Part shown: positions 5,182-28,811 of the stretch, in pieces
Layout: each line of letters starts with the position of its first letter
How positions within the stretch are numbered: the first letter of the stretch is position 1
Assembly: GCA_036867785.1 (NCBI GenBank)
Contig: CP145409.1
Span: forward strand, 806,001-870,000
From: Plasmodiophora brassicae
Lineage: Eukaryota
Direction of reading: 5' to 3'
DNA: 64,000 nucleotides
Notes under the pieces: model-generated
What the model was told of the DNA's origin: nothing
The model's database searches: none
The model's input: only the letters and a program-made list of their open reading frames with translations
Program-made: the position numbers and the translations under genes

Positions 5182-5844
5182 ATGGAGGACGACATCCACG
5201 CAATGCTGGCCAGCATTGACGAAGCGCTGGGTGCCGCTATACCGACCCGGACGTCTCCGCCTCCTGCCGCGAGCTGGGCGAAACCCGACCGTCCAGCAGT
5301 CACTCGGTCGCCGAACCAACTGCCAGTGTGCCATATGACAGACGACGATCTCGACCAGATGCTGCTAGATATCGATGCCGACCTGGACACGGCCGCACCC
5401 GACGCCCCGCTGTCTACACCTGGCAAGGGCAACTCAGGGTTTCGGAAGTGCACCGTCGTCATGCTAGGTCAGACACCAGCCGCATGCTCCAACCTACGAT
5501 GTACCATGTGCGACCACGTCGTCGTGCGCATTGTCAAACGCGAGTGGGACCCATCCTGCGACTACTTCTTCTTTCGTAGTAAGCCTCGAACCGGCTGCGT
5601 TGCTCTGCCGTCGTTGACGTGTGTGTGCCGCAGACAACGTACCAGATCTGACCAAACTCGGTCGCAAACTCAGAGATGCCCCACGTAAGCGCTATGGTGT
5701 GTGCTCCTGTCGGAACGTGCCGGTTGATGTTCTTAACCAGGTTCAACGGCCTACGCCTGCCAGTGCTCATGGACGACGGCAACGAACACGGTGGCCATCA
5801 CGTCGAGTTCGCCGCATAAATGGGTCTGTGCAGGGCACAGCTGA
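5182..5844 (+). CDS. CFAP418: Cilia- and flagella-associated protein 418 (C8orf37, RMP domain)
   Basis: After removing two introns: CSNLRCTMCDHVV..WDPSCDYFFFRNNVPDLTKL...AYACQCSW...WVCAGH-S-stop. Confidence 0.88.
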
Positions 5845-5914: not shown

Positions 5915-8900
5915 TTACAGTTTAGTAGTGATGTGCTTCGAGGGACGTCTTCGATCATTGTAGGATTCCGCTCGTCGCAGCATGCGATCCTGGGACGACG
6001 CGCGTCGCCCCACCCGCGTTAATTCCAGATCGGTCATCGAACCCTGTTGCACAGTGGTCGTCCCAACGACCACCGAGACGAGGTTGGAGCTGAACCTGTT
6101 CGGTAGCCGGGACAGCACCTGCAGGCTGCTGCACAATGTGGATTCGTCTCGGAACAGCGACGTGATGACGGCGATGTCCTCCACCCCGCTCCCGCCTCGC
6201 ACCGCCCTGGCTTTCTTATCGCATACGGTCGCCAGCACGAACGCGTGGTCGTCTTTGGACACGACAGCGTCCGGTGGCGGGTTGCTGAAGATGTAGGGGA
6301 TCGGCGACCCGTATCGTTTCTTGTCGCGGAACAGCCCGATGCAGATGAACCCGTAGACGTCTGCGAACCATCGCGACAGCTCCGGGAACGGCTTGCCACC
6401 GAACCGTTCCGGGACGGCCACCAGCGCCACCTGCATATGCCACGAACGATGCCCCGGGGTGGGCGTCCCGAACAGCAGAGCGTTCACGATGTGGAAGATG
6501 TGCGGACAGTGGAAGCACATGGCGGCCATCGACTGTGGTGTCCCGGCCAGATGCACTGTCGCGAATCGGTCAGAACAAGGGAAGCGAGTGGGTTCGCACT
6601 CGCGACCCCACCTTTGGCGTCTGCTGCAGCGCTGCTGAATTTCAGGTCGGATTGGAGAAGCGGCAACGGTGCATTCCATTGCGCCTGCGCTCTGCCGTTC
6701 GTCGAGTGGGCATCGTACAGGTTGGGCCTGAGGAATTTGAGGTTGCTCTTGAACTGCAGCTGGAACATGACGTTGGAAGCGTTCGGGTTCTTGCGTTTGG
6801 CCAGGAATCGTTCCAGAGCGATCAGGTTGGTGATGGCCGCCACGTCCGTATCGACGACCATCTCGTAGTGCCTCGTCGCGTGGGCTTGCAGGTTCCGATC
6901 CACGCCGTTGGCCGGGTTCGAAAACATTATCGTATGACTCGCCGCGATCTACGACACCGATTAGAAACGACATCATGGCATTCCCGATGACGCATACGAG
7001 ATTGATTCGGAGAAGCAGGTCGTCGTCGTTTAGGCTGCCGATGACCATGTAGACGTCTTCGAATTGGCCAATGGCCTCCCGTATGGCAAGGTCGGGAAGA
7101 TGGTCCGGGACGATGACGATCGGGATCCGCCCTCGTTGGTACTGCTGCGATTTCCTGAACGTGAACAGGAACGTGCAGATGCGGATGTCGATGAAGCCGG
7201 TGATGATGATGTGGTCGCTGAACTCGACGCTGTCAATGGGGATGATCGGTGGCAGGTTCCGTTTCCTGTCCGTTTTGATGGCCGGCATAGACAGCCCATG
7301 CAGCGTGCCCGAATCCATTTGAAACGCGCTCTGCAGCGATCGTTTCGGGTCGCTAGTCACCCTCTTGCTCAGCTCGCTGGTCTGCTTCTTGCGGTCCAGG
7401 AACGTCCTGGCGGCGTCGATCGCCGTCTGTTCGCCGGCTTCCGGCATGGTAAACGTGGCCACCTTGGCACTGTGCTCAATGCTGCACACACAGAGACATA
7501 CACACCGGCGTTTGATAAGCTTCGAATACGCCCGAGCAACAGGAACGCACCTTCGTGCAATAACGTAGACGAGTTCGCCGGCTTCTATGACGCGATCCTG
7601 CGGGTTCAGTGCAACCCCGAGCGTGCCATGCTGGTCCCGAGTGGTCAACGCGATTGGAATGATGCCCAGCTTCTCCTGCAACATCAACGCGGCATCGCGA
7701 AACATCCGCCCATGGAAGTACTGGCTGAACACAGTTGGAACAACGGAGTGACTGGCGCCCCATTCATCTACCAACCACAGTCAGCAATGGTTCGTAGATG
7801 TAAAATGATGAGCGATACATTCGTCGATCCAGTTCGTGAGTGGGACCTGTTGTACCGATGGCGCGTTGTAGGATTGGAGCAGGTTGCCGACCAGGACGTG
7901 GAACCCAGGGCACAGGCACGACTGGGCCAGCAGCGCTACCGATAGCTGGTTGCTGCAAATGAGCTGGACGTTCGGGAACTTGTTGACCGTTCGCCACAGG
8001 ATATGGTCCTGGACTTCGGGGTTGTTCACCTGGACGTAAACGGGCACGTTCGGGCACACGTTCTTCACCGAGATCGCTGCCAGCAACGACTCGTTGTCCT
8101 CGTCGATCTCTTGTTGTCGGGTGACGCATGACCGGTGTGGCAACGTGAACACGGCCGACGCCAGCGATAACGCGCACCGGTGCAGATCGTTGTCCTCGTG
8201 CACCGACCCGATCACCAGGTCGACTAGGTCGGCATAGGGTGTCGTTTTCAACGATGCTGTCAGCAACTTCAACGTTCGTTTTCGCCCGAGAATCACGACC
8301 CGGTAAGGAGACGGCCCATGGAATGTGTGGAAGAACTCAGAGAGAAACTCGTGGATCTCCTCGATGGCGAAAGGACCCTGCAGAATGAGGATCACGTGCT
8401 GGTGAAGGTCGCTCGGCACGAATTGTGACAGAGTGTTGCCAGTCTGACGCGACAGCTCAATCGTGCGCATCGCTTGCATTGGAATCAATGTCCAGGTTGC
8501 AATCGCCACCAGCACGGTGAACAGTCGTGATCGGACGTTTGTCGGCATGACCTGGCGACGCACCGTCAGTGCATAATTGTTCGCCCCAAACGACGTCTCA
8601 CTCAAGCTAACCTCGCCGAATCCGACCGTGGTCATCGTCTGAGCGATGAAGTAGCAACTGTTGAAGAACGTGATGTCTCCCTGCAGCATCTGGAAGATGG
8701 CGGCGAACATGACGACGATGGCCGAGCCGATGACGAGCGTTACGGCGATCTGCTGCTGGACACTGTCTCGCAGCAGGACGATAACGCGATACACGCGAAC
8801 GACACGAACCACCCGCAGAACACGCAGAGCTTTCAGGGATTTGAACACGCGGATCACAGCTATGTTGGACCTGGCAAGGCCGACCACCGAGTCGAAGCCG

Positions 8901-9359
8901 TTGTCGCCTGGGCTGGCGATCAGCGGTATCACGGACAACAGGTCGACGATGCCTTCCTTGGTGAAAAGGAACTGATACCCGCGAGCAAACAGGCTGATAC
9001 AGAAGTCGACAGCGAACATGATGGCCAGGACCAACTCAATCGTGGATACGATCGTGCTGTTTGGGAAGTACGATGACACGACGAACAGAACGGTGCTGGT
9101 TATGCCGGCAAACTAACGTTCCGGAGGTCAGTGCGCGTTGGTGTTTCTTACCAGGAAGGTGCCAGACCGCTAGCGTAACATCTACGATGCTTCGGATGGC
9201 GGATGACTCGTAGGCGGTGACGGCGCGCTTGTACATGTTGACTTCGTTGCGCATTATCTTCAGGAACCCATTGTATAGGTCATCGCCGTAACTGGATATC
9301 GACCGGTCATCGCCGCTCTCGGCGGCAGCGACACCACCGGGCGCTTCACCGGCGATCAT
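5915..9359 (-). CDS. Slo/BK-type potassium channel (6TM voltage sensor + pore + RCK domains)
   Basis: S4 LRVLRVVRVVRVYR; pore TMTTVGFG; RCK motifs (HVIL, EFLSEFFH, GSV...DLHRC, SVKN..P, LLAQSCLCPG, CIGLFR, YIFSNPP); several introns. Confidence 0.9.
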
Positions 9360-9736
9360 CGCCGCGACGTCTGCACGACGCGGTCGTCTAGCCGCCCACC
9401 TGTCCCCTTAATCATAATGATCGTATCATGGGGGTACACGCGTGAGACCGGCGCCGGTGACCGCCACACGTCAACGTTCACAATAGTACAAACGTCTGGT
9501 TCGTCCCACTCTTGCTCACTGCATGGGTCAGTGTCGTTGCCGGACAGACAGGCCGCACTGCGTACGATTCGATTCAGTTCGCAATTCTCACAACGGGCCA
9601 CGGGGGCTGCTACGTCTGCCAGTGCCACTGGCCCACGGCCCACGGCAGTCGGCACTGGCGGCTACCCTCCACGGACTACCGTCGACTACGAACTACCGTA
9701 GTAGTTGTACCCCCACTTCGGCAAACTGTGATTTTG

Positions 9737-11380
9737 ATGTCAGCTCCAGTTGCGGTCGTCGTGGTCCGGCTCGTGCGATGTCTGGTACTAATGTCTATTG
9801 CTGCGCCTGCCTCCTGGAGCGTGGTCGCCGAATCAATGGCAGCCCTGCGAAACGACACGGCAGTAATCTCGAGGACGTCGCCTCCTCGTGCAGGCACTTC
9901 AGCGCCGACCGACAACCCCTGGCTCCACTGTTCGACTTCGTGGACGCCTGCTGGAGGTCCCTATATCTCCATATCGCAGGATACAGACCTCGCCGACTTT
10001 GATGCTGACTCGTTTCTTCTCTACGCCGACCCTGTCAATCATTGTGATCCTTCGCTGAGTGCGTGTCCCACTACGGCTCAATCTGTCGCTGATGGGTCAT
10101 TGTCGACAAACCAACATGCATCTTCAGTAGTCGATACGACCTGTCCGGCCTCCCTGATCGCTTGTTCGAACTGCAATGGCAACGACCACATCAGTTGCTG
10201 TCGCTGCGCTCGGTCTTGCGCTGGTGCTCAGTGTTGGGAAAGCACCTCCTTGTGCAATGCGCCTGGCTCCGTTGGTTCTCGACCACACGTTCCGGTCGGA
10301 TTCGGTTGGTGCGATTGGGGGCTCTTTACCAATCAACACGGCGTGGAATACCTGATAGGTCCCACTTCAGGTATATTGCATCCATCAAGCTGTCAGCTCC
10401 AAGTGCCAGCCTACCATAACGACGGCTTAAATGTTCTTCGAGTTGATGCGCGGATCCGGTCTAACCCCAGCACATTAGACCTAGTGAACTCTCGGAACTC
10501 GAACGGCTGTGCGGGTTGGGACTGGTTTGATCCATGCGCCGATGCGCTCCATTTCTCATGTCCCAGTTGCTGTCCAGCTCGACAGTCCTACCATCATTAC
10601 CGCATTTCCTGCCACCATTGGTGGAGTTGCATTGCAGATTGCTGTGCAGCCCCCAGCACCGACCACTGTTCGCAGGCACAGGGAAATTCAGGAGCGATTG
10701 GCGAGTCCGGTTCTGCTGATCCAAATGATTCATTGTGTCACCGGATAAGCCCCAGCTCAGTTCCTGTCAGAAGCAAGAAATCGACCAGACGAATCCGTCA
10801 GCGATGCGTGCACGGCATAACTCAGGGCTTCTGCATGGAATGCGACGGGACTGGCTTTTGTGAGCATGGACATCGAACGCGCCAGTGCGAGGATTGTCGT
10901 GCGAGTAGCATCTGTGTGCATGGACGGCCGAAGTGGCTCTGTACGGAGTGTGACGGCATGAGACTCTACAAGAACGGGCGCAAGGCGCGCAACGGAAAAG
11001 GGACTTGTCTACGTCAGATGCACACGCGCAAGAAGAGCGGGATTAAAACCTTGTGCGAGCATGGGCGGCAGAAGAGCCGCTGCAGGGACTGCGGCGGATC
11101 TAGCTTCTGTGTCCATCGGCAATACAAGTACTACTGCAAAGAATGCGGCGGGAACGGCGTCTGTCACCATGGGCGCCGGAAAAGCGACTGCAAGGAGTGT
11201 GGTGGAACTCGCTTCTGTGTTCATGGACGGTGGAAATATAATTGCAGGCCGTGCGGTGGTAGACGGTTCTGTAGTCATGGGCAACGGAGGTACACGTGTA
11301 ACGAATGTGCTCGCAAGGTCGAAAGCCGCCTCGCTGCAAGGTCTGGGGTGGTGGAGACGTCTGTCTGCATGGGGCCGTAA
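9737..11380 (+). CDS. Intronless Cys-rich protein with N-terminal hydrophobic leader and eight CxH-x6-CxxC repeats (putative Zn-binding)
   Basis: Long open frame (first ATG 9737); leader MSAPVAVVVVRLVRCLVLMSIAAPASW; basic patch RSKKSTRRIRQR; 18-aa periodic C-terminal repeats. Confidence 0.7.
   Translation: MSAPVAVVVVRLVRCLVLMSIAAPASWSVVAESMAALRNDTAVISRTSPPRAGTSAPTDNPWLHCSTSWTPAGGPYISISQDTDLADFDADSFLLYADPVNHCDPSLSACPTTAQSVADGSLSTNQHASSVVDTTCPASLIACSNCNGNDHISCCRCARSCAGAQCWESTSLCNAPGSVGSRPHVPVGFGWCDWGLFTNQHGVEYLIGPTSGILHPSSCQLQVPAYHNDGLNVLRVDARIRSNPSTLDLVNSRNSNGCAGWDWFDPCADALHFSCPSCCPARQSYHHYRISCHHWWSCIADCCAAPSTDHCSQAQGNSGAIGESGSADPNDSLCHRISPSSVPVRSKKSTRRIRQRCVHGITQGFCMECDGTGFCEHGHRTRQCEDCRASSICVHGRPKWLCTECDGMRLYKNGRKARNGKGTCLRQMHTRKKSGIKTLCEHGRQKSRCRDCGGSSFCVHRQYKYYCKECGGNGVCHHGRRKSDCKECGGTRFCVHGRWKYNCRPCGGRRFCSHGQRRYTCNECARKVESRLAARSGVVETSVCMGP
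10805..11308 (+). repeat. Coding tandem repeat, 54-nt/18-aa unit (C-x-H-x6-C-x2-C-x5), 3 + 5 copies
   Basis: CVHGITQGFCMEC, CEHGHRTRQCEDC, CVHGRPKWLCTEC, CEHGRQKSRCRDC, CVHRQYKYYCKEC, CHHGRRKSDCKEC, CVHGRWKYNCRPC, CSHGQRRYTCNEC. Confidence 0.92.
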
Positions 11381-11604
11381 GCCCATGTGCAACCTTTGTG
11401 GAAGTACCGTCACCTGAATGCACGCGCAACGCAAGCGTCGTGTGTGCAACGTTTACCGGATAAAATACATTGTTGCCGTTTTAGCTGCCCTGGAAGCGAT
11501 GCGCTGTGCGCGTGTGCGCCCAGACTTGGCATTCCTGAGCAGGAGGCCCCTTCTGATCATACGGCCATTGCGTCTCGAATTCCCTGATGAATCCAACCGT
11601 CCGA

Positions 11605-12107
11605 AAACACCACCCAGAACGAAGAACAAAGCCGTGCTGATATGCAACTGTAGACCGGAGCCCATTTCTACACAACCAACGAGATCTCGCGGTGCAGGCT
11701 ACCCTGCCCCGCCAAGGCCACAGGGCCTAAATGTTATGGGTGCCCGACAGCCCAGTAAGTGTCGTTTAGGAGTTTTCTTAGGGGATCACTTGAGCACGTT
11801 GGAAGGCGAAGGGGCGCCTGTAAAACAGGTGACCACCTCCCACGTGGGGGTGGATGTCGTCAGTAGTGTAGCCAGATCTACCACAGTGAGGAAGATCAAA
11901 GTCTACGAACCTGTGGGGTGCTCATTGAGCCCTCAGACTCGCCCCGGAGTCGCCAACCTGCGAGATCCCAGCACAAAGGTGACAGGCCGGCACTCCCAGG
12001 CCGGGAGAAGCTGCCGTTCTGGAAGCGATCCTACGGTCCTCGGGCCCGAGACCGAGGCGCCTGCCTGAAAAGCGCGAAACACAAATAAACTAAACTAAAC
12101 TAAACTA
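11605..12107 (+). mobile_element. Putative non-autonomous non-LTR retroposon (SINE-like) with structured RNA body
   Basis: Direct repeat AACCGTCCGA at 11595-11604 and 12108-12117 flanks it; 3' (TAAAC)5 tail; many nested complementary segments; no recognisable coding content. Confidence 0.7.
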
Positions 12108-12110
12108 AAC
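12086..12110 (+). repeat. (TAAAC)5 microsatellite tail
   Basis: taaac taaac taaac taaac taaac, overlapping the right copy of the direct repeat. Confidence 0.97.
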
Positions 12111-12388
12111 CGTCCGACAGCGCCGCGCCACCTGTATAGGGACGCCTTCAGCGCGGTTGCCACCGGTCCCTATACTGTGTGCTGGGGAACCGGCTTACGC
12201 AGCAGTATCTTGAAGGGGCGACGAGTCACGTCTGGCTGTGATCGTTGTTTCCAGAGTCGTCATGAGACCGTGAATGGCACGAGAAACATCTCGGTGAGGC
12301 GATAGACCTGACGCCAAACACGTAAGGCGCGATCGATGGTACGGTTCAGTCATCCGTTGTTCAACGTGGGTGGTCGTGGACGGGAATC

Positions 12389-15300
12389 ATGTTCGCGAAT
12401 ATCATGTGGCTGGCCGTGTTGATTGGTATGTCAACGTCTGCGAAGATTGCGGATCAGCCGTGCCTTACTGACGGTTCACGTGATTAGCCAGCGCTGCCAG
12501 GACCGACCTGTTCTCGTCCATCTTCGCGGCGGTGCTCGTCGTCCCTGTGATCAGGAAACTCATCATTATGAACGACCTGATCAACCAGGAGCGACAGAAT
12601 TGGCTTCGGCATTGCACTGATATCAGTCTTGTTCTGCATGTTTCGATTGGTATTACAATCTTGCAGATCACGCTACAGGCAGTGGCACTTCTGTTCCCTG
12701 AGAGCGTTCCCGTTATATCTGTCATTGGATACCGAAGGTCCATGGAGCATCTACCGGCAATGCTTGAGCCAGCTGACCTTTGTGCGTGCAGGATCCAGTC
12801 GTGGCTCACCGCTCTTGAAGCTCTCTGGCCTGAACTGATCGTCGTCGTCTCCGCTGTGGCCCGAGTTGCATATCGTCAGGAGCACAGAGGCAGCGATGAA
12901 CGACGCGATATCGGACCCATGGTCCTGAAGTATCTCAATCGGATGGGTCTCGTCGACATTGTCGTGCTAACGCTGCTGATTATTGTCCCTCTGACTAATG
13001 TGTCCTTCGTCGGTATTGTCTACATTGCGCTGTGCATGGCAGGCGTTCTCCGCCTGTCAAGATCGGGTCCTCTGCCAACGGCGCGTGGTTCGCCATTAGC
13101 ACGTGGCTTTGTATGCGCCGTTATCGCTCACCTCCTCTTACTTCGGTTTCTATCACTTTTGCCACCCGTTCCCGTCATCACGCTACTGTTCGGCAAGATG
13201 CCGTCCAGCGTGATCACGTCGCTACTCCAGGCGGTCCTCGTCTACTTGTCGACTAACGCGGGTGTCGTCGACATCAGTGAAACCAGTGATGATGCTGATA
13301 CGATGTACATCCCTATTCCAAGTGAAGCACCGCCGCTGAAGAACATACCAGCAGAACCGGCCATCGCGTCAGCGAAGCGACATGTCGGATCTCTAGGTGT
13401 GTACGCCCTGCGTTTACCTGAAGTAACGCTCTTTTGAATATCGTTCCTGCAGGATGGGCACTAATCTTGATCATGGGCGTATCGCTACGATCGGTTCCAG
13501 GCACGTTTCTGATGTGTATTGGATCAGTGTCTCTTGTCATCCAGTCGCATCGCGCCGCTCTTGGTGTCATCGCGGTCGCATTCTTGCAGGTGGGCGCCGA
13601 GTACATCTGCCTGAGCGCCGTTGAGGATCACACATCCGTTGCTGTGCATGGCCTATCGGGTACTTCGTTGCCTGCACTCGTCTTGCACATCGTTGTGATT
13701 GGGTTCTTTTCATCGACGACTTATGTTTCCCGTAATGCTCCGTTGAGAGACCCGCAGCGTTATGCGCCCAACCCAGTCGTCGTCAAGGCGGCAAGGTACG
13801 TTCAGGCCGCCCTCGCTCCCATCTCCTCGCTGTCCATAATCATCCTTGGCGTGCAACATGCGACATTGTTTCACGCCGTCTTCGTCGCGATTGGCGTGTT
13901 CGCTATAGCATCGCCATGTCGGACGGCATGCTTCTGGCGGTCCTGTGTTGTCATCCCCATTACCATCGCGTTATTCGCATACACCGTCAACGATATCGTT
14001 GTCATGTTCGACGTCACTCTGTCGGATTGGATCTGGATCACGACGGTCTACGCGACCAGCATCATGCGATTGCACGTTCTGCATTACAATGACAACGACA
14101 ATACGACACTCCTGCTGGGGCGATCTGGCGCCGCATTGTTCGGTGAACTAGGAGGCATTGCCTGTGACGCAACCGCCATAATCATCGCTGCCACCCACGA
14201 TGCATCGCTGGTCTTGGCCGTCCAGCTCCTGTTCGCCGTTTTACACGTTGTCCTGCGTGTCTCGTTGACACGTCGCCGCCTATACCTGATCTGGGTCATA
14301 GCCGCACCGCTCTCGATCTGCGCGTTCCTCCTGCAATTCGCATTCCAGCTGCGCGTCATATCGACAACAACATCTTCCCTTTGGCGGCGATTTCCAAGTT
14401 TGTTCAAGTTTATCGGTATCGTTCCCATCAATGAAAGCAACTTACCCGCTGCTCTTCTCCCGATGATCGGCATGGGCGCCTTACAACTTCATTATCTTCG
14501 TCTTGTTACGTCAACGACACGGCTTGAAAACAATGAAGACCTGGTCCTGGTTCGTCAGAAGTTATCGGGGTTTGTGTCGCGATGGGTGGCGCCCATGTTT
14601 CGTAATGTGTCCACGACGCTGCTGTTCATGGTGTCGCTTCTGGATCCAACCCTGACCTCGGCCATGCTGTCTCTGTTCGCGCTGAAGGTTCTGCTGGTTG
14701 GCTCCGGGGGCGAACGCATCTTGGTCTCGGTTTGCATGTTGGATATCCTCCTAGTCTATGGGTTCCATCTTGTGTTAGTCGTCATGAACGTCAACGCGAC
14801 ATTGTACTTGGTCTTGTCCTGGGTTGGCTTGTCATCCCTTGCCGTCCCACTAATCGCGTTCTCCATCGTAACCATCCAGATCGTATGCGACCGCGTCTAC
14901 AACGACATGCAGTGGCGGCAAGCGTTCTCGATCGACACGATCTTGGCGCTGGTAACTCGCGGCAACATGCTTGAGGTGACTTTGGTCATTCTGGTCACCT
15001 GTGCCATCCTGCAACGGCGCACGCTTCTGGGTTGCATTAACGTTGCCATTGTGGCCATTATAATGCGAGTCGGTCGAATCGGGGCCCCTCGCGTATTTCC
15101 TGTGCTGACCTGGTTCTGGGCCATATTGTTGTGGGCGCGCTGGGTGCTCGCGTCGGCCCAAACATTTCTTCCACCCGATACTATCTCTCCATTGTTGCCA
15201 TGGTCATCATTGCCAGTGGAGGTCCAGCAATGGATCGGTGTCGGTCCAATCACCACCAAGGACTGGACCGTCCAGCTCATCGTTCTCGTGATCGGCACGA

Positions 15301-18300
15301 TACAGAATCGCGCGTTCCGACGCGACGAGCACATCGAGCGAATTGCAGAACAGGTACTGGAGAATCCTGATGCTATCCATCGGCATGCTAAGACTGTTGG
15401 ACAGAATCCCAACCCGAGTGTGCAGTCGAGCCGGTTCATCATGTGGAAGGTGGGGGCACTGAAGATGGTATCGTTAATCGGTCTGGCGATCGTCACCTTC
15501 CTGGCTGTTTCCGCCGAACGCCTGCAAGTATCCGCTCTGGCCTACTGTCTGGTGTCCTTGTACCTCCTCGATCGAAGCACTATCCCACGCCCTGCACGAA
15601 CTGTCGTCTGGACCGCCCTGGCGGGTGCCAACCTTGCTGGTATGGTTGATGTTCCCTTCGAGCGGCTGATAATCATGCATGCTGGTCATAGTGGTGTTTC
15701 TGAAAGTCGCGGCGGCGTGCCCGATGCTGGATCCGTACCGCCCCGTTCTGGACATTGTACTATCGGCGCCTTCGACCTGCGACTTTGTCGTCTTCGTTCT
15801 GGTCGTCGCTCAACGTCGCGCCATCGAACTGGACTTGTTCCGGCATGTGCGCACGTTCGACCGATTCCAGATCCACATGCATCAGACACGGGCGCGCGTT
15901 GCCGCCCATCGGCAATGGCGCCAGCGCAAGCTCGCTCTGATACGTTTGCTGCGAGGGTTCATCATGCGCCAGCGACGGTACATCGAACGGTGGGGCCCAC
16001 GACGCGAAGAACAGCATGACGTCAAGGAAGTCAGCATCCTGAACAAGCTTGTCCGCGCTGGTCTTCTCGATGAACACGAGCACACTGGCTTGGAATCGGT
16101 CGACCAACTCCTGAAACGCATGGACGGCTGGGAGGTGCGCCAATGTCCACTGGTCCGGATCGATGAGTGCTGATGTCTCTTAGGTCGCCTTGTCGGCATC
16201 GGAACCCGCACCAGCGAGGGAGCTCCAGGCGAAGGACGACGATGACGAACACGAGGCGCAGGAAGGATCGGTCCACGATGATGATCATGATGATGATGAG
16301 AAGGAGGATAGTGCTGAGGACCGCCGTCGTTGGACAGCACCGACGTTGGAAGTTCCTTTGCTGGGCAGAGGCGCACGACAGCGGTACCATTCTGTGGCAC
16401 AGGACGCTTTCCAGCCATTGGATTTCGGTGAGCCGTTCTGGGCCGTCGACAACGCACACAGGGTCGACGACAACGAAGAGCCTTCTGGAGACTTCCGCGA
16501 TGAGATTATCCGGAGTGTGCCTCGTGTGGGGGACCTGCCTCCTGACCCGATCCTTGTCCGTTGGGCACGGTGGTTGCGTCGTGACGCCCACGACGAGTTC
16601 GACGTGCATGAATTGCACAGGGACCGCCCCGGCGGACGTACAACGAAGGGTCGCCTGTTCGAGCTGATCAGTGCGCTACTCCATTGGTTCATCGCCCGAG
16701 TCGCCATCTGGTTAGATGCGTCCGATCGATGTTTGACGATTCGCACTCTGACGTACAACTGATTGCAGGGTGCACTTGACGTTTCTTCTGTCGCACGTTG
16801 TTGAGCAGAGCCTGATTTCGCTGGTTTTCCCATTATCATTGTTCCTGTATGGGGTCAGCGCTCGCCGGCCGGTCGAGGAGCGCCGGTTCACGTACTGCAT
16901 GCTGGCGTTCACGGAAACCCTCGTTGTTGTCAAGCTCGCTCTGCGCTTCACGCCCGCCAACATGCGCGTGTTTGCATCCTGGATCTGTGCACTGTTGTAC
17001 CCGCGTCTTGATGACATACCGACGTCCTGGACAGATCTAGCCCTGAACCTTACCGGCGTCCTCCTGCTACTTATCCAGGTGGCTGTTCAGTTATGTGTGG
17101 TATCGCGTTTGAGTTTGACAGGAAACGTGTTCAGAGGTACCGTCTGCTACTGAGGAAGCTCCCTGACGATCGGGTGTCGGCCGAGCAAGCCCCCGAGGAC
17201 GCCGAAACGTCGCTTGTGGCGTTCTTTGGGCGCCTGCGTATTCAGTTCGCGGAGACTGGCACAGACCTGTACACGCCCATCTTCACGCTCGACTTCCTTT
17301 GCTTCATCTACATTGCATACCTGTATGGACGGCTGTCTGGGAACCCGAACAGCAACATTGTCCATTCCCTGATTTCGAACCAAGTCCCGCTGTATGTCAT
17401 GTGGGTCTACTTGGCAGACTGTCATGCTAACCGACGAGTCAGGACGTACTTCCTGTCCATACTGAGCCAGTTCTGCGTCATGATCCTCGATCGAATCGTG
17501 TATATGAGGTCGGATCTGACCGCGAAGGCGATCCTGCAAGGCGTGCACTGCATCGTCTGGCATAGCATCATGCTGACGGGCTATAATTCCGCCGATTCGA
17601 GATCGACAAAGGGGTTCCTCATCGCACTGCACGTCCTGAAATCCGCATACTTCTACGCCAGCGCCTGCCAGATTCGCGATGGATACCCGCCGTTCGCCAA
17701 AGGGCATTTCTTCACCCAGCAGGTATCGTTACCGGCCTACTGGTTCTACGTCGTCTACAGGTCCACACCGTTCCTATTCGAGATTCGTACAATCCTGTAG
17801 GGTTTCCCGTCTCGAGAGTCTGTCCCGTTTCGTAACCGCGCTCGACAGGGACTGGACGTGCACGCCGTCCCCATTGTCGATGTTTGACTGGATGAAGCTG
17901 GAAGACATCTACAGCACGTTGTACATTGCTGAATGCGACTAGTGGGTCCCTGTTCGTTCGGAACCCGACCGTCCATCTGATCAGGTTTGGTACCAGCGCG
18001 AGAAGGCGTCACATGCGTCGTCGTCGTGGTGACATTTACCCAGCGCGGATCAAGGCTGCGATTGGGGCCGCCGTTGTCGTCATCATGTGCCTGATCATTT
18101 GGGGCCCGTTGATGCTGTTCGTCAGTGGATTGTCGACTGAGAACACGTCGATCGTTAGCGATGTGTCGGTCTCGCTATCTGTTCACGGATCGCGACTCTT
18201 CTTCCAGAACGACGTCGATTCGACCCGGAACCTTACCGGGGACGACATCGGACGCCTGTCCAAGGCGCCCTACAATCTCGACATGAGCCGTGCTGGGCAT

Positions 18301-19148
18301 TTCCTGTTCGGTCAGCAGTTGAACGTCGCTGGGAACAGTTCGCTCGTGTGGAACGCCAGCCCCTGGGTCCGGCAGCAACTAGCCGAAAAGGGTCGATTGC
18401 CCATCGACGTCAGCTTCGGGTTCACTCGCGCCGGCGACAATGTTGACACTGTGTTCGCCGCCCACGAACGCGTCCTGGATGATGTCGAGATCAGCTTCCT
18501 GCTGGCCATACTCAACGGAACATCGACATCGATGCGGCTCCCGAGATTGTACCCGTTATTCTTTGCCATGCGACCCGACGGCACTGTCTCCATTGTTGAT
18601 GACGCGTACGCCGACTGCCAGCTGGCCCTGTTGCGAGACAGTGCAACCGGGAGCGATTGGTGGACTTTGACGACGGTCGGCGTCAATGGCGGCCTGCCCC
18701 AAGTTGAAAGCCGACCTGGCATCCTGCTGTACGCCCTGGCCGATGTCGTCCTATGGCAGTCGATCTCGGGTGGGCTCAGCACGACGACGATCATCACTCT
18801 GTAAGGCATTAGCAAGCGCTCTTGTGTCCACCTGGGCTCATTTGATTGCTGTCAAGGTACCTGACGATTGTATTGGCGATCGGGCGGTCGATTCGGTCAA
18901 TGCTGCCGCGAGTGGACCGGATCGTGTACGAGGAGGTGCCAGACGTCGCCGCCGTCAAGGAGCTATGCTGCGACGTGTTCCAGGCGAGGTTCGACGGCGA
19001 CCACGTCCTCGAGGAGGACCTGTTCGCTGAGCTCATCCAGCTATATCGGTCTCCCGAACAGCTTCGACACGTTACCCGACCACGTTTGCCAATGACGAAT
19101 GTCACCACGTGGCCATCCGCCGGCCAGCTCAAACCTAAGGAATCGTAA
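12389..19148 (+). CDS. PIEZO: Piezo mechanosensitive ion channel
   Basis: Very long multi-TM gene; DLY..IF..DF, M.LDRIVY, QIRDGYP, PFEW motif PFLFEIRTILDW, WMKLEDIY, IIWGPL.LF, C-terminal LEEDLFAELIQLYRSPE; ATG 12389 inferred from a first exon followed by a GT-AG intron. Confidence 0.94.
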
Positions 19149-26002: not shown

Positions 26003-26189
26003 ACCCCCTCCCCAAAGGGCCAGACTCGATAAAAGGATGCGGAATGATACGGGCGCTAGGGGAGCGAACTCGCTAGGTAGACCCCCCACCGTCGTCCCTG
26101 TGTCGGGCACCAGCCGGGATCGACTGACGTAGGCAGGCAGTACCCGGGGCGTGGGCATTAACGGGCGATTGCCAGGGCGGCCGGCGCCT

Positions 26190-28811
26190 ATGGTCGCCGA
26201 CGAGGACCCGCGCCCGGGCACGTCCCAATCCGGGAACGATGCGGACGACAGCGACTGTTCGGCGGTGACGGCCGTTCCCATTCGGTACGAGGACGCCAAG
26301 CCGACGGCGCCTGGAACGACGACGGTCGTACCGCAGCCGGCCGAGCTCTCCAATATCGTCGTCGTCGTGAGGAAACGCCCACAGAACGAACGCGAGAAGG
26401 CGGCCGGCGGGCGCGACGTCATCCGCGTCATGGACGGGCGCCTGGTCGTCCTGCTGGACTCGACGTCGTCGTCGTCCGACTTCCTGCGCCATGGGCGAAC
26501 GCGCGAGAAGCAGTACATGTTCGACCACGCGTTCGACGAGTTCTGCACGCAGGAGGACGTCTACGAGCACACGACGAAGCCGCTGATCGACGCGGTCGCC
26601 AGCGGGTACAACGCCAGCGTGTTCGCCTATGGGTCGACCGGTGCCGGCAAGACGCACACCATGATGGGGACGCCGTCCCAGCCCGGCATCATGATCCTGG
26701 CGCTCGAGGACCTGTTCTCCCATGTGTCCTCCATCACCGACTCCGTCTTCAAGGTGACGCTCTCGTACCTGGAGGTGTACAACGAGAACCTCAGGGACCT
26801 GCTGCGCCCATCGACCACGAACCTATCGCTGCGGGAGGACCCGCTGCGAGGCATTCAGGTGTCGGGCGTGTCCGAGATTGTGGCGAACAGCGCCCAGGAG
26901 GTCATGGAACTGCTTCGCCTGGGCAACGCCAACCGCACCACCGAGCCGACGGCCGCGAACCAGACGTCGTCCAGGTCGCACGCCGTCCTGCAGATCGTCG
27001 TGGAGCAGCGCGACCGGACGCCATCGACCACCGAAACGCTTCGGGTCGGGAAGCTGTCGCTGATCGACCTGGCCGGGTCGGAACGCGCGGCGATCACACA
27101 GAACCGAGGGCTCCGTATGATCGAGGGCGCCAACATCAACAGGTCGCTGCTGGCGCTTGGCAACTGTATCACTGCCCTGGGCTCCAACTCCAGCTTCGTC
27201 CCGTTTAGGTGGGGCGTTGCTGGTACCGCTCCCCGCCTAGCTCATAACCGTCGTTGCAGGGATTCGAAGCTGACGAGGATGCTGAAGGATTCGCTGGGCG
27301 GTAACACGAAAACGGTGATGATCACGAACGTCAGCCCGTGCGATCAGTCGTTCGAGGACACGCACAACGCGTTGAAGTACGCGAACCGGGCGAAGAACAT
27401 CAGGACGACGGCGCGCAGCAACGTGGTCGAGGTGTCGCACCACGTCGCCAAGTACACCGAGATCATCAGCGACCTGCGACGGGAGATCAGCTCGCTGAAG
27501 TGCCAGATGCGCGTCTCGTCGCTCATGCAGCAGCGCCGCGATACGAAATCGCTGACGCACCAGCTCGAGCTCGAGCACTGGCTGTCGGCACGGGACATGA
27601 CGACCTGGGCGGAGGCGCGGCAGAAGCTCCAGGCGATCTTTGACGAACGCAAACAGGTCGCCGACAGCATCAGCGCCATCAAGATCAGGAACCTGGACGC
27701 GGTCCGCGAGCTTCGCAAGGCGAGGATCCTGAACAAACTCGGCGAACCGGTCGAGAAGGACGTCGGCGCGCTGGAACACGAGATCACCAGCGGGTCGCAG
27801 CAGGTCCAGCGGCTGAAGAAGAGGGACAACGACCTTGTGCAGCGCGAGAAGGAGCTGCGCGCGCAGGTGGGCCTGGCAGGCGTCAACGCGTCTCAGACGA
27901 TCTCGCAGATTCTGGACCTGGAGATGGACATGCACAACGTGAAGGTCGAGAACCTGAAGCTCCAGCATGGACGGGCCGAATCGGACAAGGGCCACGCCGA
28001 CTGGATCGAATCGCTCCAGGACCAGGTCCGCATTCGGGATCGGATCATTGCCGACCAGAAGGCGGCGTTGCGCTCGCAGGACATTGTCCTGTCCAGGCCC
28101 GAGTCGCGGTTGCCTGACCCCGTCCAGGATGCTGCTAGACTGGCGGCCCCGGCTCCACCATCGTCGTCAGCGCCCATGCCGAAGGCGGACGGCGAACGGG
28201 AACCTCCGCCAATTATCGCGACACCGGCTAAGGTGCCGTCGGCCCCAGCGTCCTCATCTCCTTCGCCAGTACCTCCTGATCCTCTGCCTGCACCGTCTAT
28301 CCACCCTCCGCTTGTCTCGCGTCCTTCCATGGCTCGTCCCAGCAAGACCGGCGACACGAGGGCGCCGATCCGGGAGCGGAAGCCGTTCCGGTCGGTGGTC
28401 ATGCCTTCGGTGACGGTGTCATCCAGGCTTCAAGCAATCGCAGGGCTTGGGCAAGGTACGGCGGGTGCGCAGAGAGCGCGACGATCGCTCGGCGAAGCAG
28501 GGTCGACGATGCTGCCGGCAGCAGAAGGCCCCCGGCGGCCGGCGCCGAAAGGGTTCGCCGCCGCCATCACGAGACGCATTCGAGCGGCCGGCGGGCGTCG
28601 CGTCGAGATCAAGCGGACCGAGACGCCGAAGCTGAGTCGGAGGGCGTCGCTGGCCCCAAGTCGGTCGATGTCGCGACGCAGCCTGCATCTGGACGAAGCG
28701 CCTGCCCTGCCCGATGCCATCTCGACGGCCCTGCAGCACACCAGATCGCTGCGCGCCAAGTACGTCGATTCGCCCACCGTCAGCCACGACCCTGGCGAAA
28801 TGTCGTGCTAA
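26190..28811 (+). CDS. Kinesin-8 family motor (KIF18/KIF19-like)
   Basis: FAYGSTGAGKTHTM, SYLEVYNE, NQTSSRSHAVLQI, LIDLAGSERA, EGANINRSLLALGNCI; in-frame 51-nt intron 27209-27259 restores VPFRDSKLTR. Confidence 0.93.
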   Translation: MVADEDPRPGTSQSGNDADDSDCSAVTAVPIRYEDAKPTAPGTTTVVPQPAELSNIVVVVRKRPQNEREKAAGGRDVIRVMDGRLVVLLDSTSSSSDFLRHGRTREKQYMFDHAFDEFCTQEDVYEHTTKPLIDAVASGYNASVFAYGSTGAGKTHTMMGTPSQPGIMILALEDLFSHVSSITDSVFKVTLSYLEVYNENLRDLLRPSTTNLSLREDPLRGIQVSGVSEIVANSAQEVMELLRLGNANRTTEPTAANQTSSRSHAVLQIVVEQRDRTPSTTETLRVGKLSLIDLAGSERAAITQNRGLRMIEGANINRSLLALGNCITALGSNSSFVPFRWGVAGTAPRLAHNRRCRDSKLTRMLKDSLGGNTKTVMITNVSPCDQSFEDTHNALKYANRAKNIRTTARSNVVEVSHHVAKYTEIISDLRREISSLKCQMRVSSLMQQRRDTKSLTHQLELEHWLSARDMTTWAEARQKLQAIFDERKQVADSISAIKIRNLDAVRELRKARILNKLGEPVEKDVGALEHEITSGSQQVQRLKKRDNDLVQREKELRAQVGLAGVNASQTISQILDLEMDMHNVKVENLKLQHGRAESDKGHADWIESLQDQVRIRDRIIADQKAALRSQDIVLSRPESRLPDPVQDAARLAAPAPPSSSAPMPKADGEREPPPIIATPAKVPSAPASSSPSPVPPDPLPAPSIHPPLVSRPSMARPSKTGDTRAPIRERKPFRSVVMPSVTVSSRLQAIAGLGQGTAGAQRARRSLGEAGSTMLPAAEGPRRPAPKGFAAAITRRIRAAGGRRVEIKRTETPKLSRRASLAPSRSMSRRSLHLDEAPALPDAISTALQHTRSLRAKYVDSPTVSHDPGEMSC

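Follow-up and report, generated by a model that had tools for sequence, protein, structure and literature searches.

The truncated copies of RTE LINEs consist of the element's 3′ end with a simple-repeat tail between duplications of 6–12 bp; they occur in large numbers and have in the past been wrongly taken for SINEs (PMC2887409). In the eel LINE UnaL2 the conserved 3′ tail measures about 60 nt and consists of a stem-loop followed by (UGUAA)n, and reverse transcription of the element begins within the repeat with slippage on the template (PMC1636434). Closer to the organism studied here, a review refers to a full-length non-LTR element from the sister genus Spongospora (S. subterranea; Bulman et al. 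2011; PMC12883290). For Plasmodiophora brassicae itself, the first genome paper puts the share of repeats at 5.4% and refers back to three repeat accessions (PMC4471660), a later annotation lists LINEs and SINEs at the class level (PMC11191646), and in a 2026 preprint transposable elements make up 11–14% of the genome, and LINEs count as one of the minor classes (bioRxiv 10.64898/2026.10.14.759018). The RepeatModeler libraries published for the species include LINE, SINE and “unclassified” repeats (PMC11191646; bioRxiv 10.64898/2026.10.14.759018; PMC4471660) and, as far as the accounts of them go, are represented by class totals only, namely 11.88% repeats and 11–14% transposable elements, respectively (PMC11191646; bioRxiv 10.64898/2026.10.14.759018). 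A family with some 100 copy-equivalents of its 3′ end, such as the one described below, would almost certainly be contained in these libraries. Our search of the literature, with supplementary repeat tables, Repbase and Dfam outside its scope, did not turn up any LINE or SINE of P. brassicae described at the level of the family; the present family could well have been catalogued before. A limited search for an element with a (TAAAC)n tail also found none, which is no proof of absence; where TAAAC appears in the text on lepidopteran RTE elements, it lies within an unrelated duplication (PMC2887409).

The copy analyzed here lies in the spacer between two genes of P. brassicae, in a window of 64 kb (the whole stretch of DNA that was analyzed). 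It has a target-site duplication, a tail, many relatives in sequencing runs, and boundaries that coincide with the breaks of contigs. We read its 506 bases (11605–12110) as the 5′-truncated 3′ end of a longer LINE-type element that was inserted by target-primed reverse transcription, and give this reading a probability of roughly 70%. The features of the locus are as follows.

9461 to 11380, forward strand: upstream gene, an open frame with cysteine-rich repeats of 18 codons (open reading frame; direct-repeat family D1, five copies spaced 54 nt)
11595 to 11604, forward strand: left copy of the target-site duplication, AACCGTCCGA (exact repeat)
11605 to 12085, forward strand: body of the retroposed copy, whose sense strand is the forward strand; most likely the 5′-truncated 3′ part of a longer non-LTR element, and probably untranslated (contig matches and depth gradient)
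11607 to 12068, forward strand: open frame of 153 codons plus TGA (12066–12068), which begins at the 5′ junction and ends 17 nt short of the tail (open reading frame listing)
12038 to 12057, forward strand: predicted hairpin with the stem CCUCGG/CCGAGG (12038–12043 pairing with 12052–12057) and a loop of 8 nt (minimum-free-energy fold of 11960–12110)
12086 to 12110, forward strand: 3′ tail, (TAAAC)5 (Tandem Repeats Finder: period 5, 5.0 copies, 100% matches)
12108 to 12117, forward strand: right copy of the target-site duplication (exact repeat; contigs of the right flank begin to align at 12118 and show 0 differences in the DNA runs X1, X4 and X5)
12390 to 18801, forward strand: putative gene model of a Piezo-type channel, with a candidate ATG at 12390 and then GTATGT at 12428 (Pfam)

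A target-site duplication, a simple-repeat tail at the 3′ end and microhomology between tail and target are together the signature of target-primed reverse transcription. All three had been pointed out in an earlier sequence-only reading of this DNA, and all three were confirmed in the window sequence: AACCGTCCGA is present in exact copies at 11595–11604 and 12108–12117 (direct-repeat family D5), the second of these sits at the end of the (TAAAC)5 tail, and the AAC at 12108–12110 is common to the last tail unit and the right duplication copy, a microhomology of 3 nt. Because this AAC belongs to both the tail and the repeat, the duplication proper measures 7 to 10 bp. The tail is the sole pentanucleotide array of at least four units within the 64-kb window. 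To put the repeat into perspective, an exact 10-mer has a second copy 100–1000 nt upstream at 157/62980 positions of this window (0.25%), and a 7-mer with the same spacing at 5649/62986 positions (9%); given these rates of chance recurrence, the 10-bp repeat by itself is suggestive, not decisive. It should be noted that the end letters of 11595–11604 are similar to what other members of the family have at this place (CCGAA in the window vs. CCAAC in the consensus of loose contig ends), and for this reason the exact position of the 5′ junction is uncertain by 1–2 nt.

The boundaries were also met independently of the duplication, in the contigs of sequencing runs. Contigs of the left flank align with 0 differences and stop at 11635 in X1 and X4, 30 letters inside the element, and at 11729 in X5; contigs of the right flank, from 12118, continue for a further 29–37 letters leftward and thereby reach 12081–12089. 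We assume that the overrun of 30 letters is the overlap length of an assembly from 31-letter words (Logan contigs). If the contigs were built in this way, the repeated segment extends from about 11605/11606 to 12110, which matches the prediction from the duplication and the tail. In the contig alignment 12075–12117 was masked as repeat, by which the letters of the runs at the right junction are hidden. The locus thus shows the duplication of a LINE-type insertion, a 10-bp repeat coincident with the contig breaks, and a simple-repeat tail at one end with neither terminal inverted repeats nor long terminal repeats: none of the nine inverted-repeat pairs in 11000–13000 connects the two ends of the element. 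On the forward strand the segment 11605–12110 is poor in T (84 T/506).

To interrogate the copy family, we aligned the Logan contigs of the DNA runs X1, X4 and X5 and of X16, a run guessed to be RNA, to 11200–12500 with a likeness cut-off of 80%. The matching contigs numbered 183 (X1), 106 (X4), 96 (X5) and 16 (X16), whereas only a few would be expected on a single-copy stretch. The multiple copies anticipated by the sequence-only reading are therefore present, at 96–183 contigs per DNA run, even though the 64-kb window itself holds no second copy (blastn of 11605–12107 returns the segment itself and chance matches of 12–23 nt). The summed depth of these contigs, a rough proxy and not a copy number, is distributed over the element as follows; values for the bins are multiples of the left-flank depth.

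Left flank, absolute summed depth: X1 209.8, X4 262.3, X5 68.8
11596 to 11639: X1 6.9×, X4 3.6×, X5 1.0×
11684 to 11727: X1 14.7×, X4 18.0×, X5 10.8×
11728 to 11771: X1 34×, X4 32×, X5 21×
11948 to 11991: X1 75×, X4 28×, X5 55×
12036 to 12079: X1 115×, X4 117×, X5 109×

In absolute terms the last bin reaches 24088 (X1), 30670 (X4) and 7517 (X5). Since the ratio at the 3′ end agrees in three runs from different studies, and given the contig counts, the data show a repeat family in which the 3′ end greatly outnumbers the 5′ part. All three DNA runs show many copies with a 3′-biased representation, as variable 5′ truncation would give, as far as summed contig depth can serve as a rough proxy; part of the gradient could stem from the 3′ end being better conserved, given the likeness cut-off of 80%, and not from truncation alone. 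From the bin 11992–12035 to the bin 12036–12079 the depth rises by a further step of 1.6× (X1), 4.7× (X4) and 2.1× (X5), which may be due to very short copies or to other families that share just the terminal block.

Further 5′, three contigs of X1 extend beyond 11606 with a common sequence of 30 nt and a mutual agreement of 0.82, where about 0.56 would be expected of unrelated sequences by our own calculation; this indicates that other copies run on 5′ of the start of this copy with related sequence, the sample being thin (three contigs of one run, with no extra cover at 11596–11639 in X5). Because of the gradient and of these copies extending 5′ of 11606, we consider the element in the window to be a truncated part of a longer one; the gradient, the contig breaks and the 5′ extension all come from the contigs of runs, not from aligned genomic copies. 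The sequence-only reading had noted that a tRNA-, 7SL- or 5S-like head is missing, and rightly so, as ARAGORN and Rfam (E ≤ 1) are blank over 11000–12800. It had proposed on this basis a retroposon family outside the standard classes, and here our analysis departs from it: the cover climbs towards the 3′ end and other copies extend past the 5′ end of this one, so that the missing head is explained by 5′ truncation and no new class is needed. Its assignment of the copy to target-primed reverse transcription is upheld by the duplication, the tail, the 3-nt microhomology and the multi-copy family.

The contigs have additional loose ends at 11737, 11827, 11865 and 12026–12030, and pieces of the family are joined on opposite strands at 11867/11941 in all three DNA runs and at 11871/12021 or 12026, likewise in all three. 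These show that the family comprises diverged sub-families and some inverted partial copies. One diverged family copy (matching 11852–12026, with 32 differences and two gaps) is found inside long contigs that are single-copy and measure 26246 nt in both X4 and X5. In X16 this copy has a depth of 368.6, compared with 194.4 for the gene upstream of the element, and because of this higher depth it may lie in a well-expressed transcript.

We further analyzed the coding capacity of the copy. The 153-codon frame, a length reached in 64/2000 shuffles, has no credible relative among 1.84 billion representatives in phmmer. The two hits returned by that search, both WD40-repeat proteins, were judged spurious: they are matched in six stretches and driven by repeats. 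No longer protein relative was found among 763 candidates of a word search, and neither a reverse transcriptase, an endonuclease nor any other Pfam family was found in the body of the element. Recognition of the frame in the protein atlas was low (1247, no usable hit), and the AlphaFold2 model from the single sequence has a mean pLDDT of 36.5. A comparison of one diverged copy with the window gave 12 third, six first and six second codon positions in 24 counted differences, from which, with 79 more left uncounted, no inference is drawn. The frame is therefore without support as coding sequence, and the copy was treated as non-coding, most likely 3′ untranslated sequence. For the window at large, Pfam detected no reverse transcriptase or endonuclease domain in the 67 frames, picked by eye, out of 124 open frames of at least 140 aa. 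Two patterns from the 3′ end gave 0 hits each in metagenome contigs, a collection in which this organism is apparently absent, and the result therefore has no bearing on the family.

The predicted hairpin at 12038–12057 sits in the most abundant, 3′-terminal block of the family. By analogy with UnaL2 (PMC1636434) it is a candidate recognition element for the reverse transcriptase; the fold of 11960–12110 as a whole is no better than that of shuffled sequences (z −1.05; 28/200 fold equally well). A private G of the window copy at 12044, where the family majority has A, falls in its loop.

The insertion could have proceeded in the following way. At the left edge of AACCGTCCGA, an endonuclease encoded by the element would nick the bottom strand, and the freed 3′ end (...GTT-3′) would pair with the terminal AAC of the UAAAC repeats of the RNA and prime the synthesis of cDNA. 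The tail at 12086–12110 represents the 3′ end of the RNA, since it is towards this end that the contig depth climbs. Slippage on the pentanucleotide repeat would fix the tail at five units, reverse transcription would halt or switch about 480 nt in and so leave a 5′-truncated copy, and a second nick 7–10 nt away would generate the duplication. The part recognized by the reverse transcriptase would be the last 45–70 nt, consisting of hairpin and repeats, as in stringent-type LINEs.

The alternative that survives best is that the segment is a complete or near-complete, non-autonomous SINE-like retroposon without a head derived from a Pol III gene, mobilized in trans by a LINE that shares only the last 45–70 nt and the TAAAC tail. 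The copy lacks a coding signal, SINEs are listed among the repeats of P. brassicae (PMC11191646), and the terminal step of 1.6×, 4.7× and 2.1× could mean that several families share only the terminal block, as do UnaL2 and the UnaSINEs (PMC1636434). The cover, however, is not flat and climbs about 100-fold towards the 3′ end; few copies reach 11606, and those that do go on 5′ with common sequence. Instead of the fixed 5′ end of a SINE family, in which most copies have full length, we thus see a steep gradient and three X1 contigs running past 11606 (contigs, not aligned genomic copies). No match to tRNA, 7SL or 5S was found either: ARAGORN predicts 0 tRNA genes and Rfam gives 0 matches at E ≤ 1 in 11000–12800. 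We therefore regard the SINE-like reading as unlikely.

A wider proposal is that Phytomyxea (Rhizaria) harbor a still-active partnership of a stringent-type LINE with SINEs, in which several families have a terminal block of 45–70 nt (hairpin and UAAAC repeats) in common and a single reverse transcriptase reads it, initiating through slippage on a pentanucleotide. The shared block would then have left its trace in the rise of the cover at 12036, by 1.6- to 4.7-fold. We offer this proposal tentatively, and would not expect it to hold on present evidence.

Penelope-like elements also use target-primed reverse transcription, and show 5′ truncation, variable duplications and frequent partial inverted or tandem copies; their defining features are a hammerhead ribozyme in the terminal repeat and a GIY-YIG endonuclease. 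A 3′ fragment of such an element would account for the joints between opposite strands (11867/11941; 11871/12021 or 12026; three of three DNA runs) as inverted partial duplicates. Against this, neither a hammerhead ribozyme nor any other Rfam family is found at E ≤ 1 in 11000–12800, no GIY-YIG or reverse transcriptase sequence was seen, and the regular pentanucleotide tail with a hairpin just upstream suits the published 3′ ends of LINEs, making a Penelope-like origin quite improbable.

That the segment is not mobile at all, and is ordinary intergenic DNA with a microsatellite and a chance 10-bp direct repeat, can be dismissed for practical purposes: a 7-mer repeat does occur at such a spacing at 9% of positions and the element is single-copy inside the 64-kb window, but the 96–183 contigs per DNA run, the 109–117× flank depth and the contig breaks exactly at the boundaries defined by the repeat speak against it, and contigs of a foreign organism in all three runs are an unlikely cause given the consistent ratio to flank depth. 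Two further candidates were rejected. A DNA transposon, MITE or Helitron is ruled out by the lack of terminal inverted repeats, the duplication with a one-sided repeat tail and the 3′-biased cover; a tail made of telomere repeats is ruled out by the telomere of P. brassicae, which is given as TTTTAGGG (PMC11191646; PMC6823432), not TAAAC.

Returning to the reading as a truncated LINE-type copy, the family looks young: contigs at least 95% like the window copy make up 140/183 in X1, 59/106 in X4 and 63/96 in X5. The window copy departs from the family majority at 11699, 11797, 11879, 11995 and 12044, and its minority letter at the last of these positions, G, reaches roughly the depth of one flank in X4 and X5, as expected for this locus alone. 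No joint that skips 11605–12117, as an empty site would give, was found in X1, X4 or X5, where the dropping of rare variants from contigs could hide a rare empty allele. By word index, 14 DNA-like runs (labeled as organism A or “plant metagenome”) contain 0.79–0.89 of the sampled words of 11100–12600; an empty site would leave about 0.64 by our arithmetic, and none of the 14 comes near that value. Six runs guessed to be RNA contain 0.35–0.42 of the sampled words of the same segment. Over the element, every contig of X16 has differences from the window copy, and these contigs hence represent other copies; X16 has no cover at 11508–11595 and 12080–12500, gaps that carry no inference. The sequence-only reading had suggested a recent insertion, and this is borne out in part: many family contigs are at least 95% alike (140/183 in X1), whereas the copy itself differs from the majority at several places and each of the three DNA runs carries the insertion, with no empty site seen.

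The element is placed between two genes of the forward strand, about 225 nt past the stop of the upstream gene and 273–280 nt before the candidate ATG of the Piezo gene. The distance of about 280 bp to a downstream Piezo gene given by the sequence-only reading is in line with this, the candidate ATG at 12390 lying 273 bp after 12117. In the downstream gene, Piezo_THU9_anchor was detected at 17015–17797 (E 2.1e-36) and Piezo_cap at 17896–18801 (E 7.2e-13). Between the insertion and the Piezo start codon, at 12134–12175, there is a perfect inverted repeat of 10 nt, GTATAGGGAC / GTCCCTATAC, with its arms 22 nt apart. The upstream frame of 639 aa (9461–11380) has no Pfam family. Its segment 11080–11373 holds five copies of an 18-codon cysteine-rich unit (C-x2-C-G-G ... 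C-x-H-G) at a spacing of 54 nt, the last one at 92 nt, which we take to resemble the EsV-1-7-type cysteine motif found in brown algae and in viruses of these algae. A contig of 1670 nt from X16 (guessed RNA) has 0 differences over 11200–11483 and ends at 11483, about 100 nt past the upstream stop. The upstream transcript may have its 3′ end here, with the element beginning some 120 nt further on.

The window is gene-dense and eukaryotic, and also encodes a SacI-domain gene and a kinesin-8; the 892-aa frame at 26133–28808 shares 98% identity, across 98% of its length, with the NCBI entry “Kinesin-like protein [Plasmodiophora brassicae]”. On the minus strand, at 5918–9112, two adjacent frames with Ion_trans, Slo-like RCK and BK_channel_a represent a BK (slowpoke)-type potassium channel gene, so that two large ion-channel genes, BK-type and Piezo, are found within 13 kb. 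We found no evidence for an effect of the copy on the Piezo gene or for a function in the spacer, and regard it as an ordinary truncated copy in an intergenic spacer.

These results provide a concrete anatomy, comprising a duplication, a candidate hairpin, a pentanucleotide tail and a 3′-biased spectrum of copies, for a retroposon family of the clubroot pathogen and, as far as the literature covered goes, the first anatomical description of the 3′ end of a plasmodiophorid retroposon. If the reading is true, this 3′ end would extend tail-specific recognition by LINEs to the Rhizaria. Should the family still be active, its insertion sites are possible neutral markers for separating clonal lineages; under a LINE/SINE partnership, young insertions like this one could vary from one clubroot lineage to another and be located in promoters, for instance the promoter of the Piezo gene.

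Among described systems, the truncated RTE copies of Lepidoptera share the layout of the P. brassicae copy, with a partial 3′ end, a short tandem-repeat tail and a duplication (6–12 bp there), and there too many truncated copies derive from few full-length ones (PMC2887409). The open frame ending 17 nt before the tail would, if it were coding, also agree with the layout of truncated RTE LINEs (PMC2887409). In contrast, RTE tails are di- or trinucleotide and the tail here is pentanucleotide, and the truncated copies described there encode a recognizable C-terminus of the reverse transcriptase (PMC2887409), while the frame here resembles no protein. The non-LTR element of Spongospora subterranea, known here by description only, suggests itself as a candidate for a related autonomous element (PMC12883290). 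The copy has no similarity in sequence to UnaL2 of the L2 clade, and it comes from a rhizarian protist instead of a fish. The arrangement may nevertheless resemble that of this stringent-type LINE: a stem-loop (here a predicted hairpin that is not significant) is followed by a pentanucleotide repeat, (UGUAA)n in UnaL2 and (UAAAC)5 in P. brassicae, and, as in UnaL2 and its partner SINEs (PMC1636434), conservation and sharing would be highest in a terminal block of about 60 nt.
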